Assembly (NCBI GenBank): GCA_016703265.1
Contig: JADJCK010000004.1
Location: forward strand, 205,520 to 269,519
DNA: 64,000 nucleotides
Reading direction: 5' to 3'
Source: a bacterium
Lineage (GTDB): Bacteria > Krumholzibacteriota > Krumholzibacteriia > LZORAL124-64-63
The position numbers and the translations under genes are program-made. The notes beneath the pieces were generated by a model, which was given only the letters and a program-made list of their open reading frames with translations, ran no database searches and had not been told where the DNA came from. Of this stretch, positions 1 to 17,555 are shown piece by piece. Position 1 is the stretch's first letter. Every line of letters starts with the position of its first letter.

Positions 1-90
1 CGAGCTTCGCGTGCGGTGGCAATCCACGGAGCTGGCCCCGGCAGACAGCGTTTCCGAGTATTTCCGGTTCGACTAGGAACAACACTCGCG

Positions 91-426
91 ATGCGCGCAC
101 GACAGGAAAACATGCGACGTCTGCAGCCCTCGCACTTCACTTCCGCTCTGCCCCTGACTATAGGACGGAGCGAAGCCAACGATATCGTCATCGCTGATGA
201 TTCGATCAGCCGGGTCCATCTTATCGTATCCCGGCTCCGTAGCGGCCGAGTTCTGATCACCGATTGCCAGACGACCAATGGAACGCGCGTGATGGAAGCC
301 GGAAGCGAACGGTCGGTCCACCAGGCGGTGGTTGAAACCGCCACGCTGTTGCAGTGCGGACAGATCCGCTTCCGACTGACAGAGATTCTCTCCCGCTCCC
401 AATCGAAGACAGCCGGGGAGGCCTGA
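91..426 (+). CDS. FHA domain-containing protein (may extend upstream of window)
   Basis: ORF 16..426; first in-frame ATG at 91. FHA signature IGRSEANDIVIADDSISRVHLIVSR...VLITDCQTTNGTRV. Confidence 0.6.
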   Translation: MRARQENMRRLQPSHFTSALPLTIGRSEANDIVIADDSISRVHLIVSRLRSGRVLITDCQTTNGTRVMEAGSERSVHQAVVETATLLQCGQIRFRLTEILSRSQSKTAGEA

Positions 427-466
427 TCGCTTGTCTGTCCTGGCGAAAGGCAGTGGCGGAGAAGCC

Positions 467-1186
467 ATGGCCCTGCTGGTCGGCTGTCTGCTGGCCCTTG
501 CTGTGATGTTCGCCTGGGCCACTTGTCGACTTACGCGCACGCAGCCAAGAGTGCGGTTCATTGATTGCTGCCTTCCGGTCTACGGCAGCATCCTGCTTTG
601 TCGCACTGCTGGGATGGCATCCTGGTGGGGCTGGTTTGCTGTCTTGCCACCGTTGGCGTTCGTCTACGGGTACCGTGTCTGTGGGCGACTGGCCCGCGCC
701 CGCGGCTACAACTACCACTTTTTCGGTTGTCTTGGCGTACTGGGCATCGGGCTCATTGTCCTCGCGATACTCGAGCCCGGTGGAATCGGACATTTGCGCC
801 CGGCCCCCGCCGCCGCCACGGTGCGGTTCGCGGGAAGCCGCCAGGAGCTCGTGGACGCGCCAGGTCTGATCTGCCTTGGTGGGGAATACGAAGGAGGGAT
901 CGTCCCCCTCGACTCACCCGTGGTCGTCGGTAGAGATCCCCGCGCCTGCAATCTCGTGCTACGCTCGGACGCGCTGTCCAGAACCCACCTTCGAGTGGAG
1001 GTTGATGCGCACGGGCAGGTCTTGGTGACGGATCTCGGCTCGCTTTGCGGAAGCCGCCTGCGGCGATCCCGATCCGAAAGTGACATCAGGCTGGAGGCCT
1101 TTCAGAGTCATGTCCTACAGGTGGGAGACTTCGTTTCGTTGGCTGACGGGGCCCAGGTCTTTCGGCTGGTGAACTGTAGTGAGTGA
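467..1186 (+). CDS. membrane protein with C-terminal FHA domain
   Basis: ORF 431..1186; ATG at 467. Four N-terminal hydrophobic segments, then FHA motif (VVVGRDPRACNLVLRSDALSRTHLRVEVDAHGQVLVTDLGSLCGSRL). Confidence 0.65.
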   Translation: MALLVGCLLALAVMFAWATCRLTRTQPRVRFIDCCLPVYGSILLCRTAGMASWWGWFAVLPPLAFVYGYRVCGRLARARGYNYHFFGCLGVLGIGLIVLAILEPGGIGHLRPAPAAATVRFAGSRQELVDAPGLICLGGEYEGGIVPLDSPVVVGRDPRACNLVLRSDALSRTHLRVEVDAHGQVLVTDLGSLCGSRLRRSRSESDIRLEAFQSHVLQVGDFVSLADGAQVFRLVNCSE

Positions 1187-1234
1187 TCATACGGATTCTG
1201 GCGACCGACCGATGGGCGATAGGAGTGTCTGCAC

Positions 1235-1844
1235 ATGATGACCAAATGTCCCAACGGGCATTTCTACGATCCAGCCCGGGAACGCGCGTGCCCCGGCTGT
1301 GCCGCCGTCACTCGCGGCGAGGTCGACACACGCCCCCCTCAATCGCCAGGTGCCGCAGACGCGCGCTTTGCGCGACCCGCAGTCCGGCCTCGTCCCCGAT
1401 TCGGTACCTGAAGCGCGCCACACCGACGCCCAGCACACACCTGCCGGCGCCACCGATCATGCGCGCGAGACCATCGCCTGGTCCCCTGATCGTACGGCAC
1501 ACGGGACTGATCCTGTTGTCGGCTGGCTTGTGTGCGTTGACGGTCCTGAACGCGGACGCGACTTTCGCCTTCACGCGGAGCGCAACTTCAGTGGTCGCGC
1601 AGCGAAAATGGACGTGTGCCTGGCCGCCGATGAGGCGATCTCGCGCAATGCACACCTCATCGTCACTTTTGACCCGCGAACCGCCGCCTTCGCGGTAGTT
1701 CCTGGCGAAGTGCGGGGTATGGTCTACATCAATGGTTCGCCGCTGGCGACCGTTGTCGCCCTTGCAGACCGTGACATCATCGAGTTGGGCAATACGAAGT
1801 TGCTCTTCGTGGCCTTATGCACGGGCGGCTTCACATGGGCGTGA
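1235..1844 (+). CDS. zinc-ribbon + FHA domain protein, frameshifted as assembled
   Basis: ATG at 1235 opens a 58-aa frame (MMTKCPNGHFYDPARERACPGCA..., zinc-ribbon-like) that stops at 1409-1411. The FHA domain (VVGWLVCVDGPERGRDFRLHAE...NAHLIVTF...GMVYINGSPL) lies in a different frame (ORF 1299..1844, GTG start inside the first frame). Same zinc-ribbon + FHA architecture as the ABC protein at 12063..14804. Confidence 0.5.
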
Positions 1845-1932
1845 AAGTCGCGATCTATCGTTCATTTCCTGTATGGCAGGCCGCCCGGATGGCCGCACTC
1901 CGGACCAGTCGTCTACGGAGGTCTTTCCTCAC

Positions 1933-3585
1933 ATGAACCGATTTGATCATCTCGATGAGCTGTGTTCCTGGTGCATGCGCCCGCGCACGGGACCCAGCGG
2001 CATGTGCGCATTCTGTCCGCCAACGCCGCCAACCCAAGACCAGCACCACATGAAAATGCCGACCGGTGTACTCATCGCCGACCAGTATGTAGTCGGCCGT
2101 GTTCTTGGCAAAGGCGGCTTCGGCATTACCTATCTTGGCGCCGACATCAACCTCGGCAACCGCGTCGCCATCAAGGAGTACTTCCCCACGGACCTTGCCG
2201 TCCGGGCCGAAGACCGATTGACGGTGCAGGTGATGTCGCCGACGTGTCGGGATACATACGACTATGGCTTGGAGCAGTTTGCCAGCGAGGCCCGGCGCTT
2301 GGCGAAGTACCAGCGTGTACGCGAGATCGTCACGGTGATCAACTATGTTCGAGAAAACAACACCGGCTATCTGGTAATGGAGTACCTCGACGGACGCACT
2401 CTTGGCGAGTACCTGGCCACTACGGGAGGTGCATTGACCCCGCCTGTGGCCCTGCGGCTGCTCGCGGGAGTTCTCAACGGATTGGAGGCCATGCACGCGG
2501 AGCAGATGCTCCATCGCGACATAAGCCCGGACAACATCTTCATGACCGACGCTGGGGATGTCAAACTCATCGACCTCGGCGCGGCGCGACTTGCTGTGGG
2601 GGGACGGACCCAGAATCTGTCGGTCATCCTCAAGCACGGCTATGCACCGCCTGAGCAATACCACCAGAACGGCCATCAGGGACCATGGACGGACATCTAT
2701 GCGTTCGGCATCACGCTGTATCGGTGCATCACCGGCCAGAACGCACCAGATGCCCTTGATCGGCGTGAATCGGACCGCCTCGACTGGTCGCTCCTGAGTC
2801 GTAGCGGCACCGACCGCGGATTGGTGCGGGCGCTGCAGAAAGCCACCTCGATCGACCCGAAGCAGCGGTACCAGTCGATACGCGAACTCCGGTCCGCACT
2901 CTATCGCAACCCGACGCCAACCGAAGAGCCTGTGCCGGGCCCCACGGTCCTTGCGGAACCGGCTCGAAGGACCACGAAGTTCCCGTGGATCGCAGTAGCG
3001 GCCTGCTGTGTCTTGGCCATTGCCTTGGCTGTGGTTTCGGTAACCGCATATTCTGCGCGTCGGGACCAGCAAACGAAGGAGAAGGAGAGCGCAGACAGGA
3101 TCGCGGCCTTGACCGCGGCCAACGCGGATCTGCGTTGGGTCGCCGAATGCGGAGTCAAGGACACTCACTACTACCGGGAGAACCTCCTGGGCAAGACCTG
3201 GTGGGACTTGGGTGCCCCGCTCCAGTTAGCCAAGTTCCTGGTTAGTCCCACCGCCCCCGTGGAAGACACCCACACCGGCACAAGCCTCAGTGACTCGCTC
3301 CGTGTTCGCGTCGGTGGTCGCAGATCTCCGGGCTTTGGGCATTTGTCCGGCGCCTGGGATCTGCTGTTTCTCCGGCTCGCCCAGCACTCGAACGACCGCG
3401 GCGCGGCCCTGGACAGCTTCGTAGTACCGGTCGAGTTCGGGAACGTGACGAACGAGTTCGACCGGACCTTCGGGCCATACCCTGCCAAGCCCGGACGCTG
3501 GAGTGTGACTCTGCGCTTCACGCCCGCGCACGGCGGTCCCTTGATGTATGTCGACCAGGCGGCCGCAGCAGTGGAGCGGCGTTGA
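1933..3585 (+). CDS. Hanks-type Ser/Thr protein kinase with N-terminal zinc ribbon, one TM helix and C-terminal extracytoplasmic domain
   Basis: ORF 1732..3585; in-frame ATG at 1933 (MNRFDHLDELCSWCMRPRTGPSGMCAFC = Cx2Cx10Cx2C). Kinase motifs GKGGFGITY, AIK, HRDISPDNIF, DLGAA, APE. TM helix FPWIAVAACCVLAIALAVVSV. Confidence 0.85.
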   Translation: MNRFDHLDELCSWCMRPRTGPSGMCAFCPPTPPTQDQHHMKMPTGVLIADQYVVGRVLGKGGFGITYLGADINLGNRVAIKEYFPTDLAVRAEDRLTVQVMSPTCRDTYDYGLEQFASEARRLAKYQRVREIVTVINYVRENNTGYLVMEYLDGRTLGEYLATTGGALTPPVALRLLAGVLNGLEAMHAEQMLHRDISPDNIFMTDAGDVKLIDLGAARLAVGGRTQNLSVILKHGYAPPEQYHQNGHQGPWTDIYAFGITLYRCITGQNAPDALDRRESDRLDWSLLSRSGTDRGLVRALQKATSIDPKQRYQSIRELRSALYRNPTPTEEPVPGPTVLAEPARRTTKFPWIAVAACCVLAIALAVVSVTAYSARRDQQTKEKESADRIAALTAANADLRWVAECGVKDTHYYRENLLGKTWWDLGAPLQLAKFLVSPTAPVEDTHTGTSLSDSLRVRVGGRRSPGFGHLSGAWDLLFLRLAQHSNDRGAALDSFVVPVEFGNVTNEFDRTFGPYPAKPGRWSVTLRFTPAHGGPLMYVDQAAAAVERR

Positions 3586-5974
3586 CGTGACCCCCCGCTC
3601 GAAGCGCCAGGTGGAACAACCGCCTCCACTGCGCCAATGGGACCTCGTCCCCGGCAGCACAGAGCGAATTGGTCCCTTGCGCATCTGTTCTTCGCAGCAC
3701 ATCGGAGGCCGCGAAAGCCAGCAGGATCGGCTCGCCGCGACGGCGCGGATCGGCGATTCTGATGAGCTGGTCACCGTTGTCGCCGGCGTTGCCGACGGAA
3801 TGGGTGGCACGCCTGGTGGCGATCGCGCTGCAGAACAGGCCCTCGCCGCGGCGATGTCCGATGCCATGGAGCTCCCGGAGGAGGCAGCTCCCCCTGCGAC
3901 GCTTCTCAACGCGATCGCTTCGGCACAGCATGCAGTCAAAGCTCTTGGAGAGAGTGAATCCAGTCTTTCCGGAGCCGGGACCACGCTGGCACTGGTCATG
4001 GTTACTGACGGTGACCTGTACTGGGCATCTGTGGGTGACACCTCTGTCTATGTTCTGCGCAATGGCGAACTACTGCGCGCGACGGAGCCGCACCGGGCCG
4101 CGTGGCTGGCGTCGCTCAGTCCGACTGTCGTTGGCCGGGAAAGTCTGCCCGGAAATATCCTCCACAGCTATCTGGGGTCCGACGAGCCTCTTGTTATTGA
4201 CCGCAACCTGTGGCCGTTTCGACTCGCCCATGGAGATCGAGTCCTGTTGGCTACAGACGGTGTCAGCGACACCCTTGCGCGCGCTGACATCGCCAGGTTG
4301 CTGGGCGACTCCGGAGGCGACCCGGCCGACCGGATCGTAGCGGCGGCAGCGGCTCGTGGCGGCGACAGTCAGGACAACGCGACCGCGCTGTGTCTCGATA
4401 ATATGCCACTTACGCGCGGTATATCCCCCCGCAGGCGCATTTTCTGGAGCATTGTCGCCGGGACGGCCGTATTGCTGCTATTCGCACTTGCCATGGCGCT
4501 CTTCCTGCGGTTGACCCACCGCCCGTCTCTCGACCTCGGATCCGCGGTGCCGCGGAATCCAAATGTCGTTTGGGCCTCGGTTTGCCTACTGCGGCGCAAC
4601 TTACCGACTCGCCACCACCGTCGCTTCCTTGCCGCCATTCTGGCACTCGTCTTCTGTTTCGGCCTGCCGGCATCGGCTACCGCGAACGCCGTTGACGAGC
4701 GGACCTTCGCCTCTACCTATCGCATCGTCACCCGCGTTCGGAACGGCAAGGATATCAGGACAGTGACCGGATCCGGATTTGCCATCAACAGCGATGGTTA
4801 TATCGTCACCAACTGGCACGTTGTACCAGGCCAGGATGTTCTGGACATACGAGTGTACTCTCGCGGGGACGAAGCACGTATGCGGGCTGCGCTCGCCGAA
4901 TACCGCCGTACCTCCGACTTCGATGGCGAGTTTGCAAGGACGAAGGACGTCACGAAGCTGCGAGACGACGTAATCGGACCGGCCCTGCTGGCCATTACGG
5001 AAGAGGCTGCAGACGCCAGATTGGTCTGGTTCGATCGAAGTCTGGATCTGGCCCTGTTGCAGTGCTCTGGTGCGAACGATCACGCATACCTCAAACTGGC
5101 GTCACTGAAGGACGTCCGGCCCAATGACGACGTGGTTGTTGTCGGCTATCCGTCCGGCGCCGAACTGGGCAGTCCGGAGGCCATGATCACGGCCAAGGCA
5201 GATGGCGGACATGCACGCGCCACTGAAGACAGCTTGGTGCGTGACGGCTACGCGTACCAAGCCCTGCATTTCGATGCACAGCTCAGCGACGGCAGCAGCG
5301 GCAGCCCCATTCTCAATGGTTGCGGAGCAGTGGTCGCAGTCGCCTCCTATATCATCATCGCCGCACCCGGCGCCGCGTCCAGTTACGGAGTTTCGGCGGA
5401 TCACGTCATCGAAGCTTGCCGAAAGGCCGGCGTACCCTGCGAAGTTGCCGGGCCATGTGACGATCGTGCTGCGCGGTCAAGGGCAACGTGGCTGATAGTG
5501 GCCGGAGTTGTGGCTTCTCTCGCCTTGTCATTAGCCACTCTGCGCCGTCAGCGGCGCGATGGTCGCACGAACGCCGTGGCGGTTCGCGACAGCTACACGA
5601 GCCTCACGAAACGGATTGTGAAACCACATTCCGGCCTAGCGCTGGTCGGCTGCGATCAAGACGGCACCCGCTTGTTTGCGGCCGCGCTTGAGCACCCCCG
5701 AATCGACATCGGGAGCGATACCATCGTCGCCAATCTCGTGGTACAAAGTCACGCGCGCGACATCGATGGTTTGCATTGCGTGATCCACTGGGCGGAGGGC
5801 GACACGACCATTGAGGTCGAGGATTGGTGGAGCCGTACCGGGACCTTCGACCCCAAGGGTAATCGGCTCGAACCGGGTGCACGATGCCGCGTCGGCCGCG
5901 GCGAGTCGTTCAGGATCGCGCGCGTCAGCATTGCATTGGTGTCGGCAGCCGAGGGTGCGGCGGATCGGAACTGA
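3548..5974 (+). CDS. PP2C-type phosphatase / TM / trypsin-like serine protease / TM / FHA-like domain fusion protein
   Basis: 808-aa ORF. N-terminal PPM motifs (GGRESQQDR, VADGMGG, ATDGVSD). TM helices. S1 protease triad context (TNWHVV, DLALLQ, GSSGSPIL). Second TM. C-terminal FHA-like fold (IDIGSDTIVANLVVQSHARDIDGLHCVIHWAEGDTTIEV). Start could instead be GTG at 3587 just after the kinase stop. Confidence 0.8.
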   Translation: MSTRRPQQWSGVDVTPRSKRQVEQPPPLRQWDLVPGSTERIGPLRICSSQHIGGRESQQDRLAATARIGDSDELVTVVAGVADGMGGTPGGDRAAEQALAAAMSDAMELPEEAAPPATLLNAIASAQHAVKALGESESSLSGAGTTLALVMVTDGDLYWASVGDTSVYVLRNGELLRATEPHRAAWLASLSPTVVGRESLPGNILHSYLGSDEPLVIDRNLWPFRLAHGDRVLLATDGVSDTLARADIARLLGDSGGDPADRIVAAAAARGGDSQDNATALCLDNMPLTRGISPRRRIFWSIVAGTAVLLLFALAMALFLRLTHRPSLDLGSAVPRNPNVVWASVCLLRRNLPTRHHRRFLAAILALVFCFGLPASATANAVDERTFASTYRIVTRVRNGKDIRTVTGSGFAINSDGYIVTNWHVVPGQDVLDIRVYSRGDEARMRAALAEYRRTSDFDGEFARTKDVTKLRDDVIGPALLAITEEAADARLVWFDRSLDLALLQCSGANDHAYLKLASLKDVRPNDDVVVVGYPSGAELGSPEAMITAKADGGHARATEDSLVRDGYAYQALHFDAQLSDGSSGSPILNGCGAVVAVASYIIIAAPGAASSYGVSADHVIEACRKAGVPCEVAGPCDDRAARSRATWLIVAGVVASLALSLATLRRQRRDGRTNAVAVRDSYTSLTKRIVKPHSGLALVGCDQDGTRLFAAALEHPRIDIGSDTIVANLVVQSHARDIDGLHCVIHWAEGDTTIEVEDWWSRTGTFDPKGNRLEPGARCRVGRGESFRIARVSIALVSAAEGAADRN

Positions 5975-6021
5975 GCCCTTCCCCCAATGCAGCGGCTCGC
6001 GCGGCGAAACGGAGACGACTC

Positions 6022-6770
6022 TCTTGGAGCTCACCTGTCACTTTGCCAGCGGCCAAACCGCGGGTGACCGCCCGACGATGGAGGATCGCTGCGCTTCAGC
6101 GGGCGACGAATACGGTCAGATCTGGGTGGTTGCCGACGGCCTGGGCGGCCATTCCGGAGGCGCCAGGGCTGCGGAGTTCGTGTGCGGTCGGATCATCAGT
6201 CTCTGGCGAGCGGCAGACGCCGGCGGGCGTGGCGATCTGCCGACACTCGTATCTGCAACCGCGTCGGAGCTGGCGGGCGCAAACGCTTCGCTTCACCGAA
6301 CCGAACGCGGATACAGCACCTGCGTGGTGGCGACATGGGAGGCCGCCAGCGGCCTGATCAGAGTATGCGGAGTCGGCGATACGCGCTGTTACCACGTCAC
6401 AGACGGCGCGATTGAGCTCTGCACGCGCGACGATACAGTCGCTTTCCGCTTTGCCCACGAGATCGGCACGGAACCGGGCGTGCGCGCGCACCCGGACAGG
6501 AACTCGCTGCTGCGCGCGATGGGCTCAGAGATGACCGGAGAGCCGCCGAAGATGCAGATTCTGCAACTTGATGATCGCCGCCAGGGTCTCTTGATCTGCA
6601 CTGATGGCATCTGGGAACATGTGCTGGACGGTGAGATCGCGCTGGATCTTCTCAAGTCGCCCGAAGCTTCCGATTGGGTCGCTTTTCTCCTGCGTCGGGC
6701 CGCAAATGCGGGCGCCAACGACCGTGACAACGCCACGGCCGTTGGCATCATTTGGGCTCCGTTGACCTAG
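6022..6770 (+). CDS. PP2C-family Ser/Thr phosphatase
   Basis: ORF 5811..6770. PPM motifs GDRPTMEDR, VVADGLGGHSGG, CTDGIWE. Start set at TTG 6022, after the upstream stop at 5974; ATG at 6079 would cut into the first motif. Confidence 0.75.
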
Positions 6771-6821
6771 AGGGTCTTCGCTGGCGTAGCCCTGATCCGG
6801 GCTCGCCACGAGCTGTCCGCA

Positions 6822-7253
6822 CTAACTGCCCTGTTTGCCGTCACCCTCGAACTCCAGGGTGAAATCGGCGGCACCCGTGGCGATCGTGATCCCCTCCAGC
6901 AGCACGATTTCGCCACCTCGCGCCTCAACGGTTTGCCATTGGGAGTCCTCAGCACCGACAGGCTTGCGAGCCTGGTCGAGCCAGTTGAACCGGTACCGAA
7001 GCGTCAGCAACTGGGACGACGCATTCCTCACCCGCACCGATGCTCGCATGCGGCCCGCCTCGCGACTCCAGTCGCTCTTGACCACCACGATATCCTGGGT
7101 TGCGAGCGTGGCATCAGCAGTCAACTTGTAGGATTCATAGCGGAACTGCTGTCGAGGGGCGCTCGCACAAGCTGTGAGAACGCTCAGCGCGAGCCCTGTC
7201 ACGACCATGATCGCCGAACGGTAAAACCGGTTCGCTGTTTCAGAATTTCGCAT
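6822..7253 (-). CDS. lipoprotein, possibly YcfL/DUF1425-like
   Basis: Signal peptide with lipobox LSVLTAC. 143 aa, beta-rich. Confidence 0.55.
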   Translation of the reverse strand: MRNSETANRFYRSAIMVVTGLALSVLTACASAPRQQFRYESYKLTADATLATQDIVVVKSDWSREAGRMRASVRVRNASSQLLTLRYRFNWLDQARKPVGAEDSQWQTVEARGGEIVLLEGITIATGAADFTLEFEGDGKQGS

Positions 7254-7262
7254 GTCCTCTTC

Positions 7263-8555
7263 CTATCTGTAGTCAGACACTAGCTTGTCAACCAGGCTCT
7301 TCGTCAGATCAGCATAGCGGCCAGGCCGCGCATCCATGCCGGCGCCCAAACTCAGTTTCATCGGATCGCGGGATCGCTGAATCGCTTTCGAGACAGGCTC
7401 GACGTCGGTATAAAGGACCGCCCCATTCGCATCGACCACCTCAAAACTGCCCTGAACGCTCAGGATGAGTTCGCCTTTGGGGCCTTCCCGCTCCGGAAGC
7501 ATCACCAACCGCAGGTTCACCAGCGCATCGGCAACAACATCAGCGCTTTGATCAGCCCAGCCGTCGATCGCAAAATTGCCTCGCTCCAGCGTCGCCCGGT
7601 GTTCCTGGTGCCTGCGGAGGCCGCTCTCGGCCGGCAGCACGGCCCACGACCTGCGTGAAACCAGCGCCCGCTCGAGGACCTGCCCGGCAGTTTCCACGGG
7701 CAGATTCGCCATTCCTTGATTAGTTCGGTCCTCGACCGTCACCTCACCGATCTGGAGCACGCGTCCCGACAGGAGCGGATCGCGCGCTGAGCTGGCCACG
7801 AAAAGGACATCGCCGACCTTCACCGGCTGGTTTGCCGAAGTCACCTTCACGAAATTGCCTTCGGCACCGACCGAGATCACCCGCGCACCCCCGATCCGCT
7901 CCTGGAAGCGGCCGAGTGTACGGCCGTCCAATCCACGGACTTCGTCGCCGGCGCGCCTGATCTCGAACACCACGCCCGGTCCAACGGCGCCATGATCGAG
8001 TGCAAACTCGGCAGTGGTTCCGTCCAGGGCGCGGATCGAGCCGCTTGCCTGAGCGGGCTCGAATGCAGTCGCAAGGCTGCACGCGGCAGCATGGAGCGCG
8101 TCGCGGGTGGTGCTGGCGAAACGTCCCGCACGCCCGGCGGTCCAGTACCGCGGGTTGGGAACATCGCTGAACGTGTAGTCCTTTCTATACGGATAGGACC
8201 TGCAGAACTGCACCAATCCCGTCCGACAATCGACGATCTCCAACTCGGGCTCCAAGGTGAAGAAGCAGTGGGACTCGCCCTCCGGACCCTTCACCTCTTC
8301 GAGCGTGGCCCGCGCGATACGTACGTTCACAAACAGGTCGGGACGTTCCCGGTTTCCCAGCATCACGTCCGTTGCAACATCGCTGGTGGAGGCTGTCTCA
8401 GCTTGCTGGCGAACCAGGTTGCCGGCCGGAGGCAAGACAGCCAGGTCGGTGTTGCGCAGTAGATAGCTATGAATCCACTCCTGGACGTGTTCGGCGGTGA
8501 CCGTGAACTTGGGATTGCCCAGGAGCGCTTTGGGCAGTTCCGGTCGCGTGACCAT
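7263..8555 (-). CDS. hypothetical protein, operon with flanking lipoprotein genes
   Basis: ORF 7263..8891; start set at ATG 8555 (MVTRPELPKALL...) with GGAAG Shine-Dalgarno upstream. The longer ORF N-terminus overlaps the upstream gene and looks non-coding. Repeated VxVGDxLxV beta-motifs. Confidence 0.45.
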   Translation of the reverse strand: MVTRPELPKALLGNPKFTVTAEHVQEWIHSYLLRNTDLAVLPPAGNLVRQQAETASTSDVATDVMLGNRERPDLFVNVRIARATLEEVKGPEGESHCFFTLEPELEIVDCRTGLVQFCRSYPYRKDYTFSDVPNPRYWTAGRAGRFASTTRDALHAAACSLATAFEPAQASGSIRALDGTTAEFALDHGAVGPGVVFEIRRAGDEVRGLDGRTLGRFQERIGGARVISVGAEGNFVKVTSANQPVKVGDVLFVASSARDPLLSGRVLQIGEVTVEDRTNQGMANLPVETAGQVLERALVSRRSWAVLPAESGLRRHQEHRATLERGNFAIDGWADQSADVVADALVNLRLVMLPEREGPKGELILSVQGSFEVVDANGAVLYTDVEPVSKAIQRSRDPMKLSLGAGMDARPGRYADLTKSLVDKLVSDYR

Positions 8556-9402
8556 CAACGTTGCGCTTCCGGCGCGGACGGTGCGCTTTCTCAAGCTGAA
8601 CCGCGACACCTGTGTACCCCTGGAGGGAGGGATCGCCGCGCGTCGTTCTCGCCAAGCAGAAGCCACTCTGTGCCGAACTGACACACAGCACGCAGTCCTC
8701 ATTGCGGAACATCTGACCCGCGGCGACACCATCGCGAGTGCCGCGGTCAAGAACCACTGAGTCACCGTGCCGCCCCAGGACATTGGCCTGCACACAACCG
8801 GGTGCGTAGTTCGCGGCGATGGTGGCCAACGGACCACCCAGAGTCGTGTCCACTTGCGCTGCGATAGCCGCATCGATGAGCCCGGAAACATCGAAGTCGG
8901 TGCTTTTCGCCTGCACCGGTAGCGTTGTCTCCGCGGTTAGCGACTCGGCGAAACAGACTTCTCCGGTAACGAGATCAAGGAACTCCACCGCACTGCTGGT
9001 CGTCAGAACGTAAGACTTGTTGAGCCGTCCGAGCGTCCACAGGTCGCAGCTCATCCGGGAGAGGTTGCCTCTGATCCAGATCCTGTCGAACGGCGCATCC
9101 ATGCGCACGTTGGTCGGAGATACGCCGGTCGGGACCACCACCGCACTGCCGAGATTCGCCTGCGCGCGTGACGCCATGCGGTCGAAGCAGAACCGCTCCA
9201 GATTACCGCTGTGGCCCACTGCCGACGGGTCGAATGCGTACATGCTGTCGGGACACACCAACTGGAACGGTACGACGACGTCGTACTGGAACGAGTCGCG
9301 ACAGCTCTCGTCCTGAGCCGCAGCATTGGACGCCGCTAGAAGCCACGGCATCAGCACCACAATGGCGAACACACGCAACGCGGCAATATCCATGATGGGC
9401 AT
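8467..9402 (-). CDS. secreted hypothetical protein
   Basis: ORF 8467..9627; signal peptide begins at ATG 9402 (MPIMDIAALRVFAIVVLMPWLLAASNAAAQ). The C-terminal 88 nt overlap the next gene, so a frameshift or earlier stop is possible. Confidence 0.5.
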   Translation of the reverse strand: MPIMDIAALRVFAIVVLMPWLLAASNAAAQDESCRDSFQYDVVVPFQLVCPDSMYAFDPSAVGHSGNLERFCFDRMASRAQANLGSAVVVPTGVSPTNVRMDAPFDRIWIRGNLSRMSCDLWTLGRLNKSYVLTTSSAVEFLDLVTGEVCFAESLTAETTLPVQAKSTDFDVSGLIDAAIAAQVDTTLGGPLATIAANYAPGCVQANVLGRHGDSVVLDRGTRDGVAAGQMFRNEDCVLCVSSAQSGFCLARTTRGDPSLQGYTGVAVQLEKAHRPRRKRNVDGHATGTAQSAPGQSQVHGHRRTRPGVDS

Positions 9403-9460
9403 GACGCCTCTCCTGTTGCGCGACATCCGCGCTCTCGACAAAGATACAGATTTTCGCATG

Positions 9461-10204
9461 TTACGCTCCGAACACCGGCTCAGAGGCATCTTCGACGATC
9501 TTGGGCACCGGCGCTTCCTGGGAGCGCAGGAACTTCCTGGCCTGGTCGAGGAAGCCATACATCTCCTTCGCTTGCCCAGGTATCTGACGAACCATGTCGG
9601 GTACGTCATGCGCGAGGAGGTTGGCAAACGGCCCTATGTACTTGGCTTCCAATACCGCCTGCACGGGGTTGCTCTTGACGCGCTCCAAAGCGACGGGTCC
9701 CGTGCTGGCGACCTTCTGAACCGTCTTTACGGCGGCCACATCAGCAACGACGGCCTGGACCAGTGACTCAAGTGAAGCACCCAAGGACTTCAGTGATTCG
9801 GCGCTGGCCTTTTCCTTCATGTTCTGGGCCTCGACGATTGCTTCGTCGCCATTGATCTTGATTCTCTCTTCGACCTTGCGGACCTGGACGTCCTTCTCCT
9901 TCGTGTCGGGTATCGCCACCGCGGCATCCAGTTCGGCCTGAAGGTCGGCGGCATCCTTCTTTCGTCCGACTGCGGCCACGAGCGAGATCCGGGATTGCGA
10001 CAGGGCGACGGAACCGGCTGTCAGCACGGCGTGGGAGGCGGTGACGTCGTCGATGAGGGGCTTGAGTTCGGACGACCTTCCGCTGTTGGGAAGCACTTTG
10101 TTTGGGTCGATTTTCGTTATCTTTTCCATGGTGGCGCACCCGCCAATCGCGCCCAGTACCGAAATCACTACGCCGAACATGACCATCCTGTTCACGATCT
10201 TCAT
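9461..10204 (-). CDS. alpha-helical lipoprotein, hypothetical
   Basis: ATG at 10204 (MKIVNRMVMFGVVISVLGAIGGC, lipobox). Start overlaps the stop of the upstream gene. Confidence 0.6.
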   Translation of the reverse strand: MKIVNRMVMFGVVISVLGAIGGCATMEKITKIDPNKVLPNSGRSSELKPLIDDVTASHAVLTAGSVALSQSRISLVAAVGRKKDAADLQAELDAAVAIPDTKEKDVQVRKVEERIKINGDEAIVEAQNMKEKASAESLKSLGASLESLVQAVVADVAAVKTVQKVASTGPVALERVKSNPVQAVLEAKYIGPFANLLAHDVPDMVRQIPGQAKEMYGFLDQARKFLRSQEAPVPKIVEDASEPVFGA

Positions 10205-11820
10205 TTCATACCTTCCTGACGGCTTGCGAACACATATTTGATGTTGTTGAATAGGCTGGAGTCTTCTTCGAGAGGCGGAAGACCGGGCTCGTCGCCCAAG
10301 GTTTCTTGGAACTTCCGCTTGAACATCGTGATGCGCCCCTTGTAGGTCAGGTAGACCGTCAAGTGTGCGCTGGCGCGATCCCACTTGCGCTCATCAACGT
10401 CCGATACTGCCGGGGTCTGGTCCAATTGAGCGACCAGAGCGTTCTTGGCCGTCGGACTGGGAACGTCCTCAATCTCCAGAACCAGATGCACGCCATTTTC
10501 GTCGCGTTCGCGAAAATACGTGTGCAGCTGTTCAGCAAGGCGCAACCCGGCCACGGCCCCCAGGCGGGTGGCAGCCCGAAAAGCCGAGCCCTGTGCGGTA
10601 CGATCCGTGCCCGACTCCTGCACGGCGGTCGAGGACAGAATCTCGCCGGAGAAGCAATCGACGATCTTGATCGCCAGCTGGGCTGTCGACCAGTGCATGC
10701 CGTCGTCGGTGACCCCTTCGTAGAGAATGGATGTCGAGCCGACCATTACGGCATCGGCGCCGTACCGCTCACCGGCTACGAGAGCGAACGCGCGCGCATT
10801 CAGATCATTGTCGACCTGGCCAGCCAGGTTCCCTTCGCCGCCGATAAGATACTCGCGGACGGCAATCGTCTCTTCGCTCGAAAGCAGTCGGATGTCGCGT
10901 TCGAGCAGCTTCTCCGAGATTGCGGCGGCACTAGCCGGATCCTGGTTGCGGAACTTCACCGATTCCGGAGGAAAGTATTCGACGCACTTCATGGAGAACG
11001 CTGCCGCATTCATGGAATGTTCGAAATGACTTTCCGTCTGCGCCTCTGCGCTGGCGCCCGGCTTCGACGCCGGCTTGAATTTCCGCAAGCGCTCCATCTC
11101 CGGAATCTCTTTGAGGGCCGGCGCCTGGCGCGGGAACGTTACCTGCGTCCAGCCGGCCGGCAAGGTCCGTGGCGCCTGCGAACCGGCTTGGCCGTCGCGA
11201 CCATTCCGACTGGGCGTCGCGGAACCACCTTCGGCCGGCGTGTTTTTCACATTCAGGTTACCTTTGGAGCTTCCCTCGGTGTGTTCGCTCTGAATCTCTC
11301 CATTCACGACAACGATGCGCTTGACGGGCGGTGTCGCGTCAGGAGCTATATCCGCCTGGAAGTACTCATCGACCAGGACCATGATCGATCGCCGCGATAC
11401 GCGGCCATCCTCGAGACCAGTGCCCTTAATTACTTCTCGGATCTTGTCCATGTTCACTTCACAGGTGATTGTGATGCGGTAGATCTTGTTCTGGTCGTTC
11501 TGGTCGCCCACGATGCGCACATCTTCGACATATCCGGCGGCGGCGCGCAGAATCCTCGTCTCGATGACGTCACGCTGGGACTCAAAGGTCGTCTCACTGA
11601 CATAGCTGCGAACTGCCAGCTCAAGGGCATCGCGGACGGCCGCCGTGCGTGCCGCCTCGAAGGCGCTGTCAATGCTTTCGCGCTTCTTGTTCTGGATCGG
11701 GGCCTCCCCGTACCCCGTGCAGGGCTTGAACTCCGCCCATGCAGCGGCCGGCAAGCCCAGCAGCAGAGCGACCAGCGCGATGCGGACGGTCCAGGTTTGA
11801 CGGTACTTCGGAATGCTCAT
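10201..11820 (-). CDS. secreted hypothetical protein (539 aa)
   Basis: Signal peptide MSIPKYRQTWTVRIALVALLLGLPAAAWA. First gene of the minus-strand operon 6822..11820. Confidence 0.6.
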   Translation of the reverse strand: MSIPKYRQTWTVRIALVALLLGLPAAAWAEFKPCTGYGEAPIQNKKRESIDSAFEAARTAAVRDALELAVRSYVSETTFESQRDVIETRILRAAAGYVEDVRIVGDQNDQNKIYRITITCEVNMDKIREVIKGTGLEDGRVSRRSIMVLVDEYFQADIAPDATPPVKRIVVVNGEIQSEHTEGSSKGNLNVKNTPAEGGSATPSRNGRDGQAGSQAPRTLPAGWTQVTFPRQAPALKEIPEMERLRKFKPASKPGASAEAQTESHFEHSMNAAAFSMKCVEYFPPESVKFRNQDPASAAAISEKLLERDIRLLSSEETIAVREYLIGGEGNLAGQVDNDLNARAFALVAGERYGADAVMVGSTSILYEGVTDDGMHWSTAQLAIKIVDCFSGEILSSTAVQESGTDRTAQGSAFRAATRLGAVAGLRLAEQLHTYFRERDENGVHLVLEIEDVPSPTAKNALVAQLDQTPAVSDVDERKWDRASAHLTVYLTYKGRITMFKRKFQETLGDEPGLPPLEEDSSLFNNIKYVFASRQEGMK

Positions 11821-12062: not shown

Positions 12063-14804
12063 TTATGTTGTCTTTTGGTGCGCCTTACTCCGGCGTCCGT
12101 CCACGCCAACTACCGCGCGAAGCCTGGCATAGGCCAGGATGAGGAAGGTCAACGTGAAAGCAATGAGGACCAGTTCATTCCGCATTAGCGACTCCCCGGC
12201 CAGCGCAAAATCGGGCGGCGACAGAGAGGGCGGGATGGGGCTGCCGTCTACTGGCGCAGGCGTTGCGGGTGCTCGGGAAAGGGCGAAACCGTTGGCGATG
12301 TCCAATCGCTTCAGCAGCGCAAGCATTGACCACTTGAGGGGCGTCAAGAGCGCCAAGACATGTTCCAGCGGCTGTGACCTGACTTCACCGTAGGGCTTGA
12401 GATACCCGGACAACATGAGCTGCGGCACGACGAGCAGAGGAACGAACGAAATGGCGGCAACCTCTGTGGCTACTGCTGCCGAGACGAGCAAGCCCAGTGC
12501 CGCGCCGCACACGGACGTTGTGAACAGCAGACACAGGCCAGCGGGAAGAGTCTCCAAACCAAGCCCGATCCACGGCCAGGTAATGACCACCAGTACCGCT
12601 GTTTGCAACGTCACCAACAGGAGTTGCGGCAGCAACGAAGAGATGAGGTATGCGAGCGTCGAAAGACCCGTCATTCGTTCGCGCATGAAGACAGCGCGCT
12701 CGGCGACGAGTTCGCGGGCGGCATTGCTGCAGCCGAGCCACATGGACACGGCAGACAGCAGGAACATCGCCGGCACCTTGTCTTTCACCAGATCAGACGC
12801 GTCGCCTGGACCGAGACCTGCAAAGATGATCCCGATCAGGAGCGCAATAAACGGCGCCTGTCCCAACTGGAGCCATAGCGCAGCGCGATCTCGACGTCGC
12901 CTGATCAGGCTACGTGCCACCAGACCTGGGATCTGGATCCAGCCGGGTGCGCGCGGCGCCCGACGCGGCTGCGGACAGCTCTGCCGGTAGTGATCAAGAT
13001 CACTCTGCCTTTGTTTGACGAAGGTCTGGAACGTGTCACTCTGGAGATAGGCTTGTCGCCATTCCTCCGGGTCCTGACGCAGTTCTTCTTTTCCGGGCTC
13101 AAGACAGTCCAGCAGGTAGTCGGCCGGATTGACGCCCGGGCGCAGAGGCAGGTGTCCATGCGAGGAGAGATGCTCGACCGCCGCCGTTCCGGAATTCCCG
13201 AAATAGGCCAGCTTCCCGTTCTTGGCGAGCAGAATCAACTTGTCCATCAGTTCGAACACTTCACGGCGGGGCTGGTGAATCGTCACGACGATCGTCTTCC
13301 CCGAGTCGGCGAGGTCCCGTAGGATCTGCATCACCTCAAGCGCTGCCGTGGCGTCAAGACCGGAGGTGGGCTCGTCGAGGAATATCAGGGGCGGCTCGGT
13401 GACGAGTTCGAGTGCGATATTGACGCGCTTGCGTTGACCACCGGAGATTCCTCGTATCCGCTCGCCACCGATCAACGAGTCGCGCACGTGCGCCAATCCC
13501 ATGCGCGTGAGGAGGCGGTCCACGTGGGCGCGCATCTCACCGTCGGGAAGTTGAAGTCTCTGTCGCGCGGTAAAGTAGATCGTCTCGAATACCGTCAAAT
13601 CGCGGTGCATGATGTCTTCCTGGGGAACGTAGCCCATGCGGTCACGAACCGCATCCAGGTTCTCCTCAAGATCGTATCCATTGATCAGAACCTGTCCGCT
13701 CGACGGCGATCGCTGTCCGGTGAGCAGTTCCAACAGCGTGGTCTTTCCGGACCCCGAAGGTCCCATGAGTGCGACCAGCTCACCGGGATAGATACTCAAT
13801 GAAACGGCGTCGAGAATACGTTTGCGCTCGCGGCCGGTATCGATTTCGCGACATACATTGATGGCATCCAGGCGTACGGCGCTGTGATGGGGACGGATCG
13901 CGTCACCGGCCCGACCAGAGAGCCGTATCCGCACAGGACCGAGCGCCAATTCGTCAGCGGCCCCGATGACGGCCTGGCGGATCGGGTCCCCATTGACAAA
14001 GGTCCCGTTGCTGCTGCCTAGATCGTGAACCTCCCAGGCGCCACCCCGAGCGACGATGCGCGCGTGGTGCCAGGACACCAGGGGATCGTCAACGACGACA
14101 TCGCATTCCGGGGCCCGACCAAGGAGCACTTCGCCGTCGGTGGGTACGGTGGCAGTGAACGCGGTCGAATCCACCCCGGCCTTGGGCATTGCCAATTGCT
14201 GGGTCCAGGCGGCAATCGTCGCCGGTGGAATTCGATACGACCCCAGCGTCAGGTTGCTGCCGGTCGGAATCTCCAGCGGGGATGTCGCCGGCACCCCATT
14301 GACCTGGGTTCCGTTCTTGCTGCCGAGGTCAAGGACCAGCAACCGGCCGTCCTCGGTCCAGATCTCGGCATGTCGCGCGCTGACATCCGGATAGGGAACA
14401 ATCAGGTCCGCCGGGGGTTCGCGGCCGATCGTTAGCCGTGCACCCGAAGGTGCGGTGAGTAGCTTCGCGACGATATTTCGAATCTCGAACGGCCGGATGC
14501 CGATCTGGATGACTTCGTTGAGTCCGACGGTAGTCTCGGTAATGCGCCGGCCGGCCACGAAGGTCCCATTCGTGCTGTCCAGATCCTTGACGATATAGCG
14601 GCCGGGCGCCCTATCGCGCCGGATTTCGAGATGCTGCCTTGAGATATGGCGGTCTTCGAGAACAACATCGCAACCTTCACCACTACCGACCAGGAGCGCG
14701 GCCACGGGCGCCTCGATTTGGCCTGCGCCGGAAACGTCGCTGCCGCACCGTGCGCAGCGACCGGCATTGGCTGGAACGCGCGCATTGCAAGTGGGGCAAT
14801 GCAT
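12063..14804 (-). CDS. zinc-ribbon + three FHA domains fused to an ABCG/White-type ABC transporter (ATPase + ABC-2 permease), Rv1747-like
   Basis: N-terminus MHCPTCNARVPANAGRCARCG. Three FHA motifs (...SRQHLEI...DLDSTNGTFV; ...ARHAEI...LGSKNGTQV; ...WHHARI...LGSSNGTFV). Walker A GPSGSGKT, signature ISGGQRKR, Walker B IFLDEPTSGLD. C-terminal six-helix ABC-2 membrane domain. Confidence 0.85.
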   Translation of the reverse strand: MHCPTCNARVPANAGRCARCGSDVSGAGQIEAPVAALLVGSGEGCDVVLEDRHISRQHLEIRRDRAPGRYIVKDLDSTNGTFVAGRRITETTVGLNEVIQIGIRPFEIRNIVAKLLTAPSGARLTIGREPPADLIVPYPDVSARHAEIWTEDGRLLVLDLGSKNGTQVNGVPATSPLEIPTGSNLTLGSYRIPPATIAAWTQQLAMPKAGVDSTAFTATVPTDGEVLLGRAPECDVVVDDPLVSWHHARIVARGGAWEVHDLGSSNGTFVNGDPIRQAVIGAADELALGPVRIRLSGRAGDAIRPHHSAVRLDAINVCREIDTGRERKRILDAVSLSIYPGELVALMGPSGSGKTTLLELLTGQRSPSSGQVLINGYDLEENLDAVRDRMGYVPQEDIMHRDLTVFETIYFTARQRLQLPDGEMRAHVDRLLTRMGLAHVRDSLIGGERIRGISGGQRKRVNIALELVTEPPLIFLDEPTSGLDATAALEVMQILRDLADSGKTIVVTIHQPRREVFELMDKLILLAKNGKLAYFGNSGTAAVEHLSSHGHLPLRPGVNPADYLLDCLEPGKEELRQDPEEWRQAYLQSDTFQTFVKQRQSDLDHYRQSCPQPRRAPRAPGWIQIPGLVARSLIRRRRDRAALWLQLGQAPFIALLIGIIFAGLGPGDASDLVKDKVPAMFLLSAVSMWLGCSNAARELVAERAVFMRERMTGLSTLAYLISSLLPQLLLVTLQTAVLVVITWPWIGLGLETLPAGLCLLFTTSVCGAALGLLVSAAVATEVAAISFVPLLVVPQLMLSGYLKPYGEVRSQPLEHVLALLTPLKWSMLALLKRLDIANGFALSRAPATPAPVDGSPIPPSLSPPDFALAGESLMRNELVLIAFTLTFLILAYARLRAVVGVDGRRSKAHQKTT

Positions 14805-16727: not shown

Positions 16728-17555
16728 TCAAGTGGACAGTTCGAAGTTAGAGTTTTCGGCTTCCCATCTCTCCCTGAAGACCGACGGCGGTACCTTGCCA
16801 AGGCTGTCGTGCGGTCGCTCCTCGTTGTAGTCGAGCATCCAGTTCCAAGCCAGCTCCCGCACCTGGTCAAGGTCGTCGAACAGGTATGCGCTGAGCAGTT
16901 CGTCACGGAACGTCTTGTTGAACCTTTCGATGTATGCGTTCTGGTTCGGCTTTCCGGGCTGGATGTACAGGATCTCAACGCCGTTCTGCTCGCACCAGTT
17001 CACAAACGGCTGACTCAGCAGCTCTGGCCCGTTGTCGCACCGGATGGCATCCGGCACGCCGCGCCAGCTCTTGATTACGTCCAGGGTCCGCACGACTCTT
17101 TCGCCGGGCAGCGACGTGTCGATCTCGATCCCCAAGCACTCGCGCACGCCTTCGTCCAGCACATTCATCGTTCGGAAGCAGCGCCCGCAGTACAACGTGT
17201 CGTGCATGAAGTCGAGTGCCCAGATTCGGTTCGGTTCTGCTGGAACAACTAAGGGCTGACGCGGCCGGTCGCCCAGCCGCTTCTTCGTCCGCCGTCGGTG
17301 ATTCATGCCCAGCTCGCAGTACACGCGGTAGATCCGCTTGTGATTCCAGGGCCGACCATCCAGCCGCAGGCGGTCTCGGTACTTCCAGAAGCCGCGACGC
17401 GGGTGCCTCTCTGCCAGGTCCTGCAACGCATCAATGACCTCGGCGTCGCGCACCAATCGATCCTGCGGCGCCTTGTACCAGGCCGAACGCGACAGCCCGA
17501 TCGCGGCGCAGGCACGGCTCACGGAAAATTTCTGCTCGGCCACCGGATACCTCAC
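16728..17555 (-). CDS. IS3-family transposase OrfB (DDE/rve integrase core)
   Basis: 275-aa ORF with the DDE motif context (ALDFMHD...CDNGPE...NAYIERFNKTFRDE). Normally expressed as an OrfAB fusion by -1 frameshifting. Confidence 0.85.
   Translation of the reverse strand: MRYPVAEQKFSVSRACAAIGLSRSAWYKAPQDRLVRDAEVIDALQDLAERHPRRGFWKYRDRLRLDGRPWNHKRIYRVYCELGMNHRRRTKKRLGDRPRQPLVVPAEPNRIWALDFMHDTLYCGRCFRTMNVLDEGVRECLGIEIDTSLPGERVVRTLDVIKSWRGVPDAIRCDNGPELLSQPFVNWCEQNGVEILYIQPGKPNQNAYIERFNKTFRDELLSAYLFDDLDQVRELAWNWMLDYNEERPHDSLGKVPPSVFRERWEAENSNFELST

Follow-up and report, generated by a model that had tools for sequence, protein, structure and literature searches.

Organization of the fusion protein

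We have analysed a stretch of 64,000 nucleotides from a bacterium of the phylum Krumholzibacteriota (assembly GCA_016703265.1, contig JADJCK010000004.1, positions 205,520 to 269,519), referred to as the window in the following, and focused on a long open reading frame (ORF) on its forward strand that encodes a PP2C-type phosphatase, a trypsin-like serine protease and a domain with forkhead-associated (FHA) fold within one polypeptide. With high confidence, we assign this ORF as a very divergent member of a conserved and uncharacterised Hanks-kinase gene cassette. Judged from its alignments, it unites two complete membrane proteins end to end, a long PP2C and a protease that is connected via a transmembrane helix (TM) to an FHA domain (protease-TM-FHA). 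The fusion contains the following features:

3548-5974 (+): fusion ORF, 808 residues from ATG 3548, or 765 residues from TTG 3677 (NCBI annotation)
3680-4402 (+): PP2C/PPM phosphatase domain, residues 45-285, of the 'long, membrane-anchored' class of the cassette
4439-4513 (+): hydrophobic segment H1, residues 298-322, equivalent to the C-terminal membrane anchor of stand-alone long PP2Cs
4514-4618 (+): basic linker, residues 323-357, comprising a remnant of the PP2C tail and the n-region of a signal peptide
4619-4690 (+): hydrophobic segment H2, residues 358-381, aligning with the signal peptides of stand-alone protease-TM-FHA proteins
4715-5431 (+): PDZ-less S1C/HtrA-like trypsin-fold protease, residues 390-628
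4853-5005 (+): helical insertion in the protease, residues 436-486, about 50 residues between the strands carrying His and Asp
5480-5548 (+): transmembrane helix H3, residues 645-667, followed by the sequence RRQRRDGR
5633-5947 (+): FHA-fold domain with degenerate phosphothreonine site, residues 696-800

The ORF is single and uninterrupted on the forward strand and counts 808 codons from its ATG, as had been claimed in an earlier note on this DNA, although the start codon itself is uncertain. In the identical protein deposited at NCBI under the name 'trypsin-like peptidase domain-containing protein', translation starts at the TTG at 3677, resulting in a length of 765 residues, and since the N-termini of other family members line up with this shorter start, we regard 765 residues as the more likely length. 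The GC content at the second codon position is the lowest of the three throughout the ORF (from about 3590 to about 5870), and the pattern is equal across the phosphatase, linker, protease and FHA parts and similar to that of the neighbouring genes. Because this codon-position signal is uniform over all four parts, and all three domains share one frame that is devoid of a stop codon, a frameshift join or chimera, which the earlier note had flagged as a concern, was ruled out. We have also rejected an internal translation start for the protease half, for which there is no convincing start codon or ribosome-binding site. No ATG, GTG or TTG is found in the 12-20 codons ahead of the core of H2, where the start of a signal peptide would be expected, and the nearest candidates, a GTG at codon 334 and a TTG at codon 322, both lack a clear ribosome-binding site. 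More than one change would thus be required to split the ORF into two genes. A scan for promoters and terminators found nothing above background.

The N-terminal domain is detected by the Pfam models PP2C_2 (PF13672; residues 49-246, 62.2 bits compared to a cutoff of 24) and PP2C (PF00481; 24.5 bits compared to 20.3) and by the NCBIfam Stp1-type PP2C model (residues 55-283). The metal-coordinating motifs (RxxxxD, DGxGG, DG and DN) are all present, with D60, D83-G84, D237-G238 and D276-N277 aligned to the equivalent residues of family members. A structural model of the domain, with a predicted local distance difference test score (pLDDT) of 85-94, matches tPphA, PstP, S. agalactiae STP and PppA in Foldseek searches with E values of about 1e-14, and the matched structures include 1txo, 2cm1 and 6jkv. 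On the basis of profiles and model, the domain is a phosphatase of the PPM/PP2C fold with intact catalytic motifs and predicted activity.

Profile and fold both identify the middle domain as a protease, in line with the earlier description of a trypsin-like enzyme with an intact His-Asp-Ser triad. Pfam Trypsin_2 (PF13365) matches residues 408-598 with 81.7 bits compared to a cutoff of 27.6, and the best structural matches found by Foldseek are DegP, DegQ, HtrA1 and MucD. The triad consists of H424 (nucleotides 4817-4819), D500 (5045-5047) and S584 (5297-5299), the columns of H424 and S584 being invariant and that of D500 nearly invariant in the family alignment. The serine resides within a GSSGSP motif that stands where other fusions contain GNSGGP. 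NCBIfam models of the MarP/Do-family HtrA type match the domain only partially and in two pieces, thus pointing to an insertion within it. This insertion of about 50 residues is common to the window protein and one subgroup of stand-alone protease-TM-FHA proteins but is absent from the other PP2C fusions; the distance from His to Asp is 74 residues in the window protein, compared to 60-69 in the subgroup with insertion and to 27-36 in those of the other fusions for which it was measured. A Pfam search at E <= 1 found no PDZ domain in the fusion protein, and all HtrA, DegP and DegS equivalog models of NCBIfam score far below their cutoffs on its protease, which by these profiles falls outside the HtrA/DegP family proper (S1C with PDZ).

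Two cysteines of this region, C592 just after the nucleophile motif and C637 just before the last TM, occur together in 8 of 45 family sequences and are both absent in the other 37, and neither is ever found alone. These numbers come from a motif- and position-based count, as a column-based version failed due to misalignment of the variable linker. Such co-variation is as expected for a disulfide bridge, whose predicted presence most likely places the protease outside the cytoplasm.

The C-terminal domain scores 20.2 bits (E 8.4e-4) against the Pfam FHA model (PF00498) at residues 721-786, which is below the gathering score of 20.7, and phmmer found no FHA match for it in the PDB. An AlphaFold2 model of residues 690-808 (pLDDT 91.4, predicted template modelling score 0.82) provided a clearer picture, since the top 50 Foldseek matches in the PDB are all FHA domains, including bacterial FhaA, GarA/OdhI, CT664 and YscD-type proteins. 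In an alignment of the domain with canonical FHA domains from 10 members of the family, G722, H743, D759, S762 and G765 are invariant. Alignment and model in combination define it as an eleven-strand beta-sandwich of the FHA fold that is homologous to bona fide FHA domains. In FHA structures, phosphothreonine is contacted by three residues, Arg in the motif GR, Ser in SxxH and Asn in NG. The window protein carries Ser723, Asp740 and Thr764 at these positions and has thus replaced three of the five signature residues, retaining G722 and H743, whereas among the 10 protease-linked relatives in the alignment Arg and Asn are conserved in all and Ser in 8. As a consequence of these replacements, canonical phosphothreonine reading is unlikely in the window copy. 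The FHA-like module proposed in the earlier note hence stands with respect to its fold, as judged by AlphaFold2, Foldseek and homology. The phosphopeptide recognition that had been attributed to it is not supported for the window protein in view of its degenerate site.

The membrane topology is less simple than the two passes initially assumed, as the protein contains three strong hydrophobic segments with a mean hydropathy above 2.0 (residues about 298-322, 358-381 and 645-667). Basic clusters are found ahead of H2, with 7 Arg/Lys and 3 His within residues 321-358, and after H3. H2 ends in A-N-A followed by V-D-E, which together form a site of signal-peptidase type. The arrangement with phosphatase inside, protease outside and FHA domain inside is well supported for the wider family, but the two-pass scheme conflicts with the three segments of the window protein. 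Because the cysteine pair and the basic clusters would place the protease outside, we infer that either only one of H1 and H2 spans the membrane or H2 is still cleaved as signal peptide.

Relatives of the fusion and conservation of the cassette

The earlier note did not know of any comparable arrangement. A unique architecture initially seemed conceivable, as a word-index search retrieved only the window protein and PP2C-only matches and its use with a mixed alignment was uninformative, returning only proteins of PP2C type, but it was rejected once an exhaustive phmmer search over 1.8 billion representatives showed relatives. These fall into two groups. Proteins of the first (P0012, P0014, P0015, P0017 and P0045) share the domain order of the window protein, with PP2C, hydrophobic segment, protease, TM and FHA domain. 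Those of the second (P0022, P0025, P0048, P0065 and P0137) are 440-580 residues long and match residues of about 360-795 of the window protein in one stretch that starts from their own signal peptide. With P0012 as query, at least 13 clusters at 90% identity combine PF13672, PF13365 and PF00498, for which Nitrospirota including Candidatus Magnetominusculus, Competibacteraceae and Desulfamplus are named as sources. The same query found dozens of clusters combining Trypsin_2 and FHA, with Binatia, Candidatus Magnetobacterium, Gemmatimonadota, Desulfobacter, Methylovulum psychrotolerans and Bacillus tianshenii as named sources. The stand-alone form with signal peptide, protease, TM and FHA domain is widespread. 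All relatives bear generic automatic names. In the literature, we have found no paper on PP2C-protease-FHA fusions or protease-TM-FHA proteins, and a protease catalogue from 2008 contains only the order FHA-FHA-trypsin, in Bacteroides.

Eight loci from different phyla share a set of genes around a protease-FHA gene or a fusion (STK, serine/threonine kinase; numbers following PP2C as in the gene labels):

L081: FHA, vWA-FHA, fusion, PP2C, STK
L082: FHA, fusion, STK
L083: STK, STK, FHA, PP2C410, protease-FHA
L084: same gene set, with cadherin/Big_9 and MotA_ExbB extras
L085: vWA-FHA, PP2C394, protease-FHA, PP2C245, FHA
L086: same gene set, from Methylovulum
L087: PP2C331, protease-FHA, PP2C242, DUF5684-FHA, STK, FHA, from Bacillus tianshenii
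L001: same gene set, from a scan of a genome collection

The scan of the genome collection employed generic protease patterns, and 79 of its 80 loci contained ordinary HtrA-type genes, leaving only L001 as useful. Recurring genes of the cassette encode a Hanks-type kinase with varied sensor domains, a long PP2C, an S1 protease with signal peptide that is followed by a TM and FHA domain, a short soluble PP2C and one to three small or membrane-embedded FHA proteins, often of the vWA-TM-FHA or DUF5684-FHA type. Many of the FHA domains of the cassette are matched by the Pfam model Yop-YscD_cpl. The long PP2C gene is located directly upstream of the protease gene in L083, L085 and L087, with distances ranging from a 4-nucleotide overlap to a gap of 43 nucleotides, and the short PP2C gene directly downstream of the protease-FHA gene in L085 and L087. 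The other three-domain fusions are always embedded in a kinase/PP2C/FHA cassette (L081, L082). A gene for a membrane protein similar to MotA/ExbB is added in some cassettes (L084, L085), and the protease gene of L084 is immediately preceded by one for a large surface protein with cadherin/Big_9 repeats (4438-6987). These extras hint at targets in the envelope or at the cell surface.

The genes surrounding the fusion in the window are:

1-426 (+): 3' part of a gene for an FHA-domain protein, clipped by the start of the window (Pfam FHA E 1.3e-11; GR, SRVH and TTNGT are canonical)
431-1186 (+): membrane protein with DUF5684 and FHA domain, 251 residues (FHA E 5.8e-8, DUF5684 E 5e-4)
1299-1844 (+): small FHA-type protein (Yop-YscD_cpl E 3.3e-6; start uncertain, the first 70 or so codons look non-coding)
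1933-3585 (+): Hanks-type Ser/Thr kinase (ORF opens at 1732, likely start ATG 1933)
6024-6770 (+): second PP2C of the 'short, soluble' class, 248 residues (start TTG 6024 with GGAG upstream; ORF opens at 5811; motifs intact)

The fusion is thus found in the same context as its counterparts in L081 and L082. The Hanks-type kinase directly upstream (ORF 1732-3585) and the second PP2C directly downstream that the earlier note had described are both in place, and the proposed order of phosphatase, protease and FHA domain is borne out by Pfam, NCBIfam and fold matches. In BLAST comparisons, the fused PP2C scores 94-119 bits to long-class compared to 33-51 bits to short-class members, and the downstream PP2C 74-113 bits to the short compared to 27-43 bits to the long class, which, at the level of sequence, confirms the fused PP2C as ortholog of the long and the downstream PP2C as ortholog of the short class. 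The kinase displays the motifs GxGxxG, VAIK, HRD, DLG and APPE. An N-terminal Cys4 motif precedes its kinase domain, and a single TM leads to an extracytoplasmic tail of about 180 residues, for which no Pfam family match was found. Its N-terminus (1933-2050, +) carries the zinc-ribbon-like CxxC...CxxC motif CSWCMRPRTGPSGMCAFC ahead of the catalytic domain. The DUF5684-FHA architecture is also found in the cassette of Bacillus tianshenii (L087, gene 10071-10862). In its representative from the window (431-1186), GR and SRTH are kept and SLCGS replaces STNGT, with a Cys at the position of the Asn. Together with that of the fusion, two FHA domains of the cluster thus depart from the consensus where the phosphopeptide is contacted, and Arg and Asn are both kept only in the FHA domains encoded at 1-426 and 1299-1844. 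The cassette proteins of the window align to their relatives with about 100-119 bits, compared to 200-250 bits among the other members across phyla.

Several further candidates were dismissed. An ORF at 1183-1698 (+) is spurious as cluster gene, since its translation is rich in Arg, Pro and Ser and its GC content at codon position 2 exceeds that at position 1; the real gene is the one at 1299-1844 in another frame. An Rfam scan of 1100-2000 gave no match. Among the scanned ORFs, which cover part of the 64 kb, no structural genes of type VI secretion or cell-division genes were found near the cassette. Membership in a known anti-phage defence system was rejected, as PADLOC returned only generic matches to kinase (PD-T4-6, mad6) and protease domains (RT-Protease) and no system-specific one.

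Origin of the fusion

The composition of the fusion becomes understandable from its stand-alone counterparts. Normally, the genes for the long PP2C and the protease-TM-FHA protein are neighbours that run in the same direction. In the long PP2Cs of L083 and L085, the phosphatase domain is followed by a single TM and a charged tail of about 100 residues, and the join in the window has preserved both the anchor of such a PP2C (H1) and the signal peptide of the protease (H2). In the other fusions, a single hydrophobic segment connects phosphatase and protease, and two segments are found only in the window protein and in the doubtful P0018. The latter (1098 residues) comprises a PP2C, a TM, a signal peptide and a protease and ends in a stretch of about 350 residues rich in Arg, Pro and Ser, without an FHA domain; it appears frameshifted or of poor quality and was not used as evidence. 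A single segment and a short His-to-Asp spacing, which would be expected in case of common descent with the other fusions, are both missing in the window protein. Because its two segments, its insertion of about 50 residues and its spacing of 74 residues are unlike those of the other fusions, the window fusion has, by these sequence features, probably originated independently. Recurrent fusion of the same two neighbouring genes is a classical sign that their products are likely to act together physically. Overall, the window ORF is a new, divergent and probably independently fused copy of a recurrent, unstudied architecture built from well-known parts, and as such one divergent example and no unique invention.

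Proposed mechanism and alternative explanations

Most likely, the fusion constitutes a membrane subunit that would couple cytoplasmic Ser/Thr phosphorylation to extracytoplasmic proteolysis. In the proposed mechanism, the PP2C and the FHA-fold domain would both face the cytoplasm, and the protease, tethered by H3, would face the periplasm or exterior. One of H1 and H2 would span the membrane, or else cleavage between Ala381 and Val382 would regenerate the two ancestral membrane proteins at a ratio of 1:1. In canonical members of the family, the cytoplasmic FHA domain would dock on a phosphothreonine generated by the kinase of the cassette, and would in this way bring the extracytoplasmic protease, and in fusions also the attached PP2C, to the activated kinase complex. 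Phosphorylation in the cytoplasm would thereby control proteolysis outside the membrane in an 'inside-out' manner, and the PP2Cs would reset the system. In the window copy, docking would probably either be independent of phosphorylation or be provided by the PP2C on the same chain together with the three further FHA proteins that the cluster encodes.

We favour this explanation, comprising cassette membership, end-to-end fusion and an inside-out role, with moderate confidence, as several observations weigh against it. The inside-out mechanism is derived from architecture and synteny, the signal-peptidase site was assigned by eye following the -3/-1 rule, and the p-value for the co-variation of the cysteines (Fisher p = 4.6e-9) ignores phylogenetic relatedness. 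For the model of the C-terminal domain, the input alignment consisted of FHA domains, a bias in favour of that fold. Finally, all relatives share only 25-29% sequence identity with the window protein, and neither the word-index nor the exhaustive phmmer search found a close homologue, so that the fused state cannot be confirmed in a second genome. The latter relates to the unlikely case of a sequencing or assembly artefact, where two real genes would appear as one because a stop codon was lost by a base error in the consensus of the metagenome-assembled genome. In accord with this case, anchor and signal peptide are both complete in the ORF, as they would be in two separate genes, in the closest, insertion-bearing subgroup the two genes are separate with a distance of only 0-43 nucleotides, and the fusion protein is a singleton on one contig. 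Conversely, neither the frame nor the codon-phase signal is interrupted, the absence of an in-frame stop and of a suitable start codon ahead of H2 means that at least two changes would be needed, and fused versions are viable in other lineages.

A literal interpretation of the hydrophobic segments, in which all three span the membrane, is also at odds with the favoured topology, as PP2C and protease would then both be cytoplasmic and the FHA-like domain would lie on the outer side. In this case, the protease would have (phospho)proteins of the cytoplasm as substrates, and binding of phosphothreonine would no longer be required of the FHA-like domain. The mean hydropathy above 2.0 of each segment agrees with this topology, as does the loss of the phosphate-binding residues, which is expected for a domain located away from phosphoproteins. 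We still consider it very unlikely, since the linker with its 7 Arg/Lys and the sequence RRQRRDGR would end up outside, contrary to the positive-inside rule, the co-varying cysteine pair that is typical of an oxidising compartment is retained, and H2 still has the tripartite build of an export signal (n-, h- and c-region) and can be aligned with signal peptides from relatives. The model of the earlier note, where one polypeptide reads phosphothreonine via its FHA domain, erases it via its PP2C and ends signalling by proteolysis, draws on the presence of three activities in one ORF beside a kinase, on the intact FHA domains of canonical family members and on the existence of FHA-PP2C fusions that dock on and dephosphorylate kinases, such as DRA0334 of D. 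radiodurans and plant KAPP. It is improbable in view of the degenerate FHA site and of a membrane that most likely separates the protease from the kinase domain and the phosphothreonine, which would leave only extracytoplasmic segments amenable to cleavage, and nothing shows that proteolysis ends the signal rather than executing it. A possible ectodomain substrate is the extracytoplasmic tail of the kinase itself with its approximately 180 residues. We assign a similarly low probability to a decaying cassette, where fusion, awkward topology, degenerate FHA domain and extreme divergence would result from relaxed selection in the course of the system's loss. Decay would be compatible with the scores of the window proteins of about 100-119 bits compared to 200-250 bits among relatives across phyla, with the lost FHA motifs of the fusion and the Cys at the Asn position (SLCGS) in another FHA domain of the cluster, and with GSSGSP in place of GNSGGP. 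It is difficult to reconcile with an ORF of 808 codons without stop, intact catalytic residues in both PP2Cs, the kinase and the protease, a codon-phase pattern that is normal for coding DNA, and the preservation of the cysteine pair and of signal-peptide features.

The preferred coupling of phosphorylation to outside proteolysis could be extended to a broader proposal, which we advance tentatively and consider doubtful as a whole. Accordant with it, the cassette would be a widespread and undescribed inside-out system with protease-TM-FHA proteins and their PP2C fusions as output arm. Its FHA membrane proteins (protease-FHA, vWA-FHA and DUF5684-FHA) would assemble on a site phosphorylated by the kinase and switch on proteolysis or remodelling at the outer face, and the two PP2Cs would reset the system. 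The window copy would have swapped phospho-docking for a covalent link to the phosphatase, and signal peptidase may cut it into two subunits.

Bacterial modules of Hanks-type kinases, PP2Cs and FHA domains are known chiefly as cytoplasmic switches. The cassette combines an extracytoplasmic serine protease with a cytoplasmic FHA domain as its tether, repeatedly in fusion with a PP2C and with conservation from Bacillota to Nitrospirota, which, if the proposed coupling is true, would offer a route for phosphorylation inside the cell to control proteolysis outside. Its presence in the cultured species Bacillus tianshenii and Methylovulum psychrotolerans makes it directly testable. The window copy itself adds two experiments of nature, on the one hand a raw fusion of two genes end to end, in which the topology signals conflict, and on the other an FHA domain that has lost the residues for phosphate binding.

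Other genes of the window

The region is generally rich in genes of Ser/Thr signalling, with further observations as listed below:

7263-11820 (-): ORFs of 542, 386, 307 and 539 residues, some mutually overlapping, next to the downstream end of the cassette and on the opposite strand; no Pfam match except for a weak one to TrkA_C
12063-14804 (-): protein of 913 residues with an N-terminal zinc-ribbon-like Cys4 motif, three FHA domains, ABC ATPase and ABC-2 permease
16728-17555 (-): IS-type transposase (rve/rve_3 integrase core and HTH_21) between the FHA-ABC transporter and the second kinase
18289-21162 (+): second large Hanks-type kinase, 957 residues, 12 kb from the cassette
24423-27593 (-): protein of 1056 residues combining HDOD/HD, a WD40 beta-propeller and a calcineurin-like metallophosphoesterase, an unusual signalling architecture

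In the protein encoded at 12063-14804, Pfam FHA matches with 185 bits in three stretches, the first of which contains GS instead of GR. We take this protein to resemble Rv1747 of M. tuberculosis, an ABC exporter regulated via FHA, although it contains three FHA domains.

Relation to known systems

The closest counterparts of the window protein are represented by MBF0456479.1 (Nitrospirota) and MBF0113068.1 (Desulfamplus), both named 'trypsin-like peptidase domain-containing protein', which show the same order of PP2C, TM, Trypsin_2, TM and FHA and reside in the same cassette, with a short PP2C following and a Hanks-type kinase and FHA proteins adjoining. Unlike the window protein, to which they are 25-28% identical, they contain one segment between PP2C and protease, lack the insertion of 50 residues and have a canonical FHA domain (IGRD, SxxH, SxNGT) and a GNSGGP motif. 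Stand-alone proteins composed of signal peptide, Trypsin_2, TM and FHA domain (MCI0488798.1 from Blastocatellia and homologues from Methylovulum psychrotolerans and Bacillus tianshenii) align to residues of about 360-795 of the window protein. One subgroup shares its insertion and cysteine pair. The stand-alone proteins have a long PP2C gene directly upstream, but their own gene is separate from it and their FHA domain is canonical.

With respect to its phosphatase, the window protein shares the PP2C fold with PstP of Mycobacterium tuberculosis, whose layout of PP2C, TM and extracellular tail is like that of the long class, and with PppA of the threonine-phosphorylation pathway of type VI secretion (PpkA/PppA/Fha1) of Pseudomonas aeruginosa, which also displays the same operon logic of Hanks-type kinase, PP2C and FHA protein. 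Unlike the window fusion, neither PstP nor PppA has a protease or FHA domain attached. The plant protein KAPP is a fusion of FHA domain and PP2C that docks on a phosphorylated kinase. In D. radiodurans, DRA0334 combines both domains in one polypeptide within a vWA/STPK/FHA/PP2C operon (bioRxiv 10.64898/2026.01.23.701218). As in the window protein, FHA and PP2C are thus found on one chain, which in the case of DRA0334 is encoded beside kinase, FHA and vWA genes, and by analogy both proteins offer a plausible model for the targeting of the phosphatase in canonical family members. In the window protein, unlike in these two, an extracytoplasmic protease and membrane segments, two or three in number, lie between the domains, and the FHA domain has no phosphothreonine-binding residues.

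Its protease shares fold and triad with the S1C proteins HtrA, DegP, DegS and MarP, and the membrane tether with the catalytic domain outside is like that of DegS and MarP, but it has no PDZ domain and carries a C-terminal TM anchor with a cytoplasmic FHA domain. FHA-like domains without canonical phosphothreonine-binding residues are found in the type III ring proteins YscD, EscD and PrgH. The FHA domain of the window protein resembles these phospho-independent domains of secretion rings, where the FHA fold is equally joined to a TM, and 4a0e and 4d9v are among its structural matches. Unlike the ring proteins, the window protein is encoded in no secretion-system context, and its extracytoplasmic part is a protease instead of ring-building domains.

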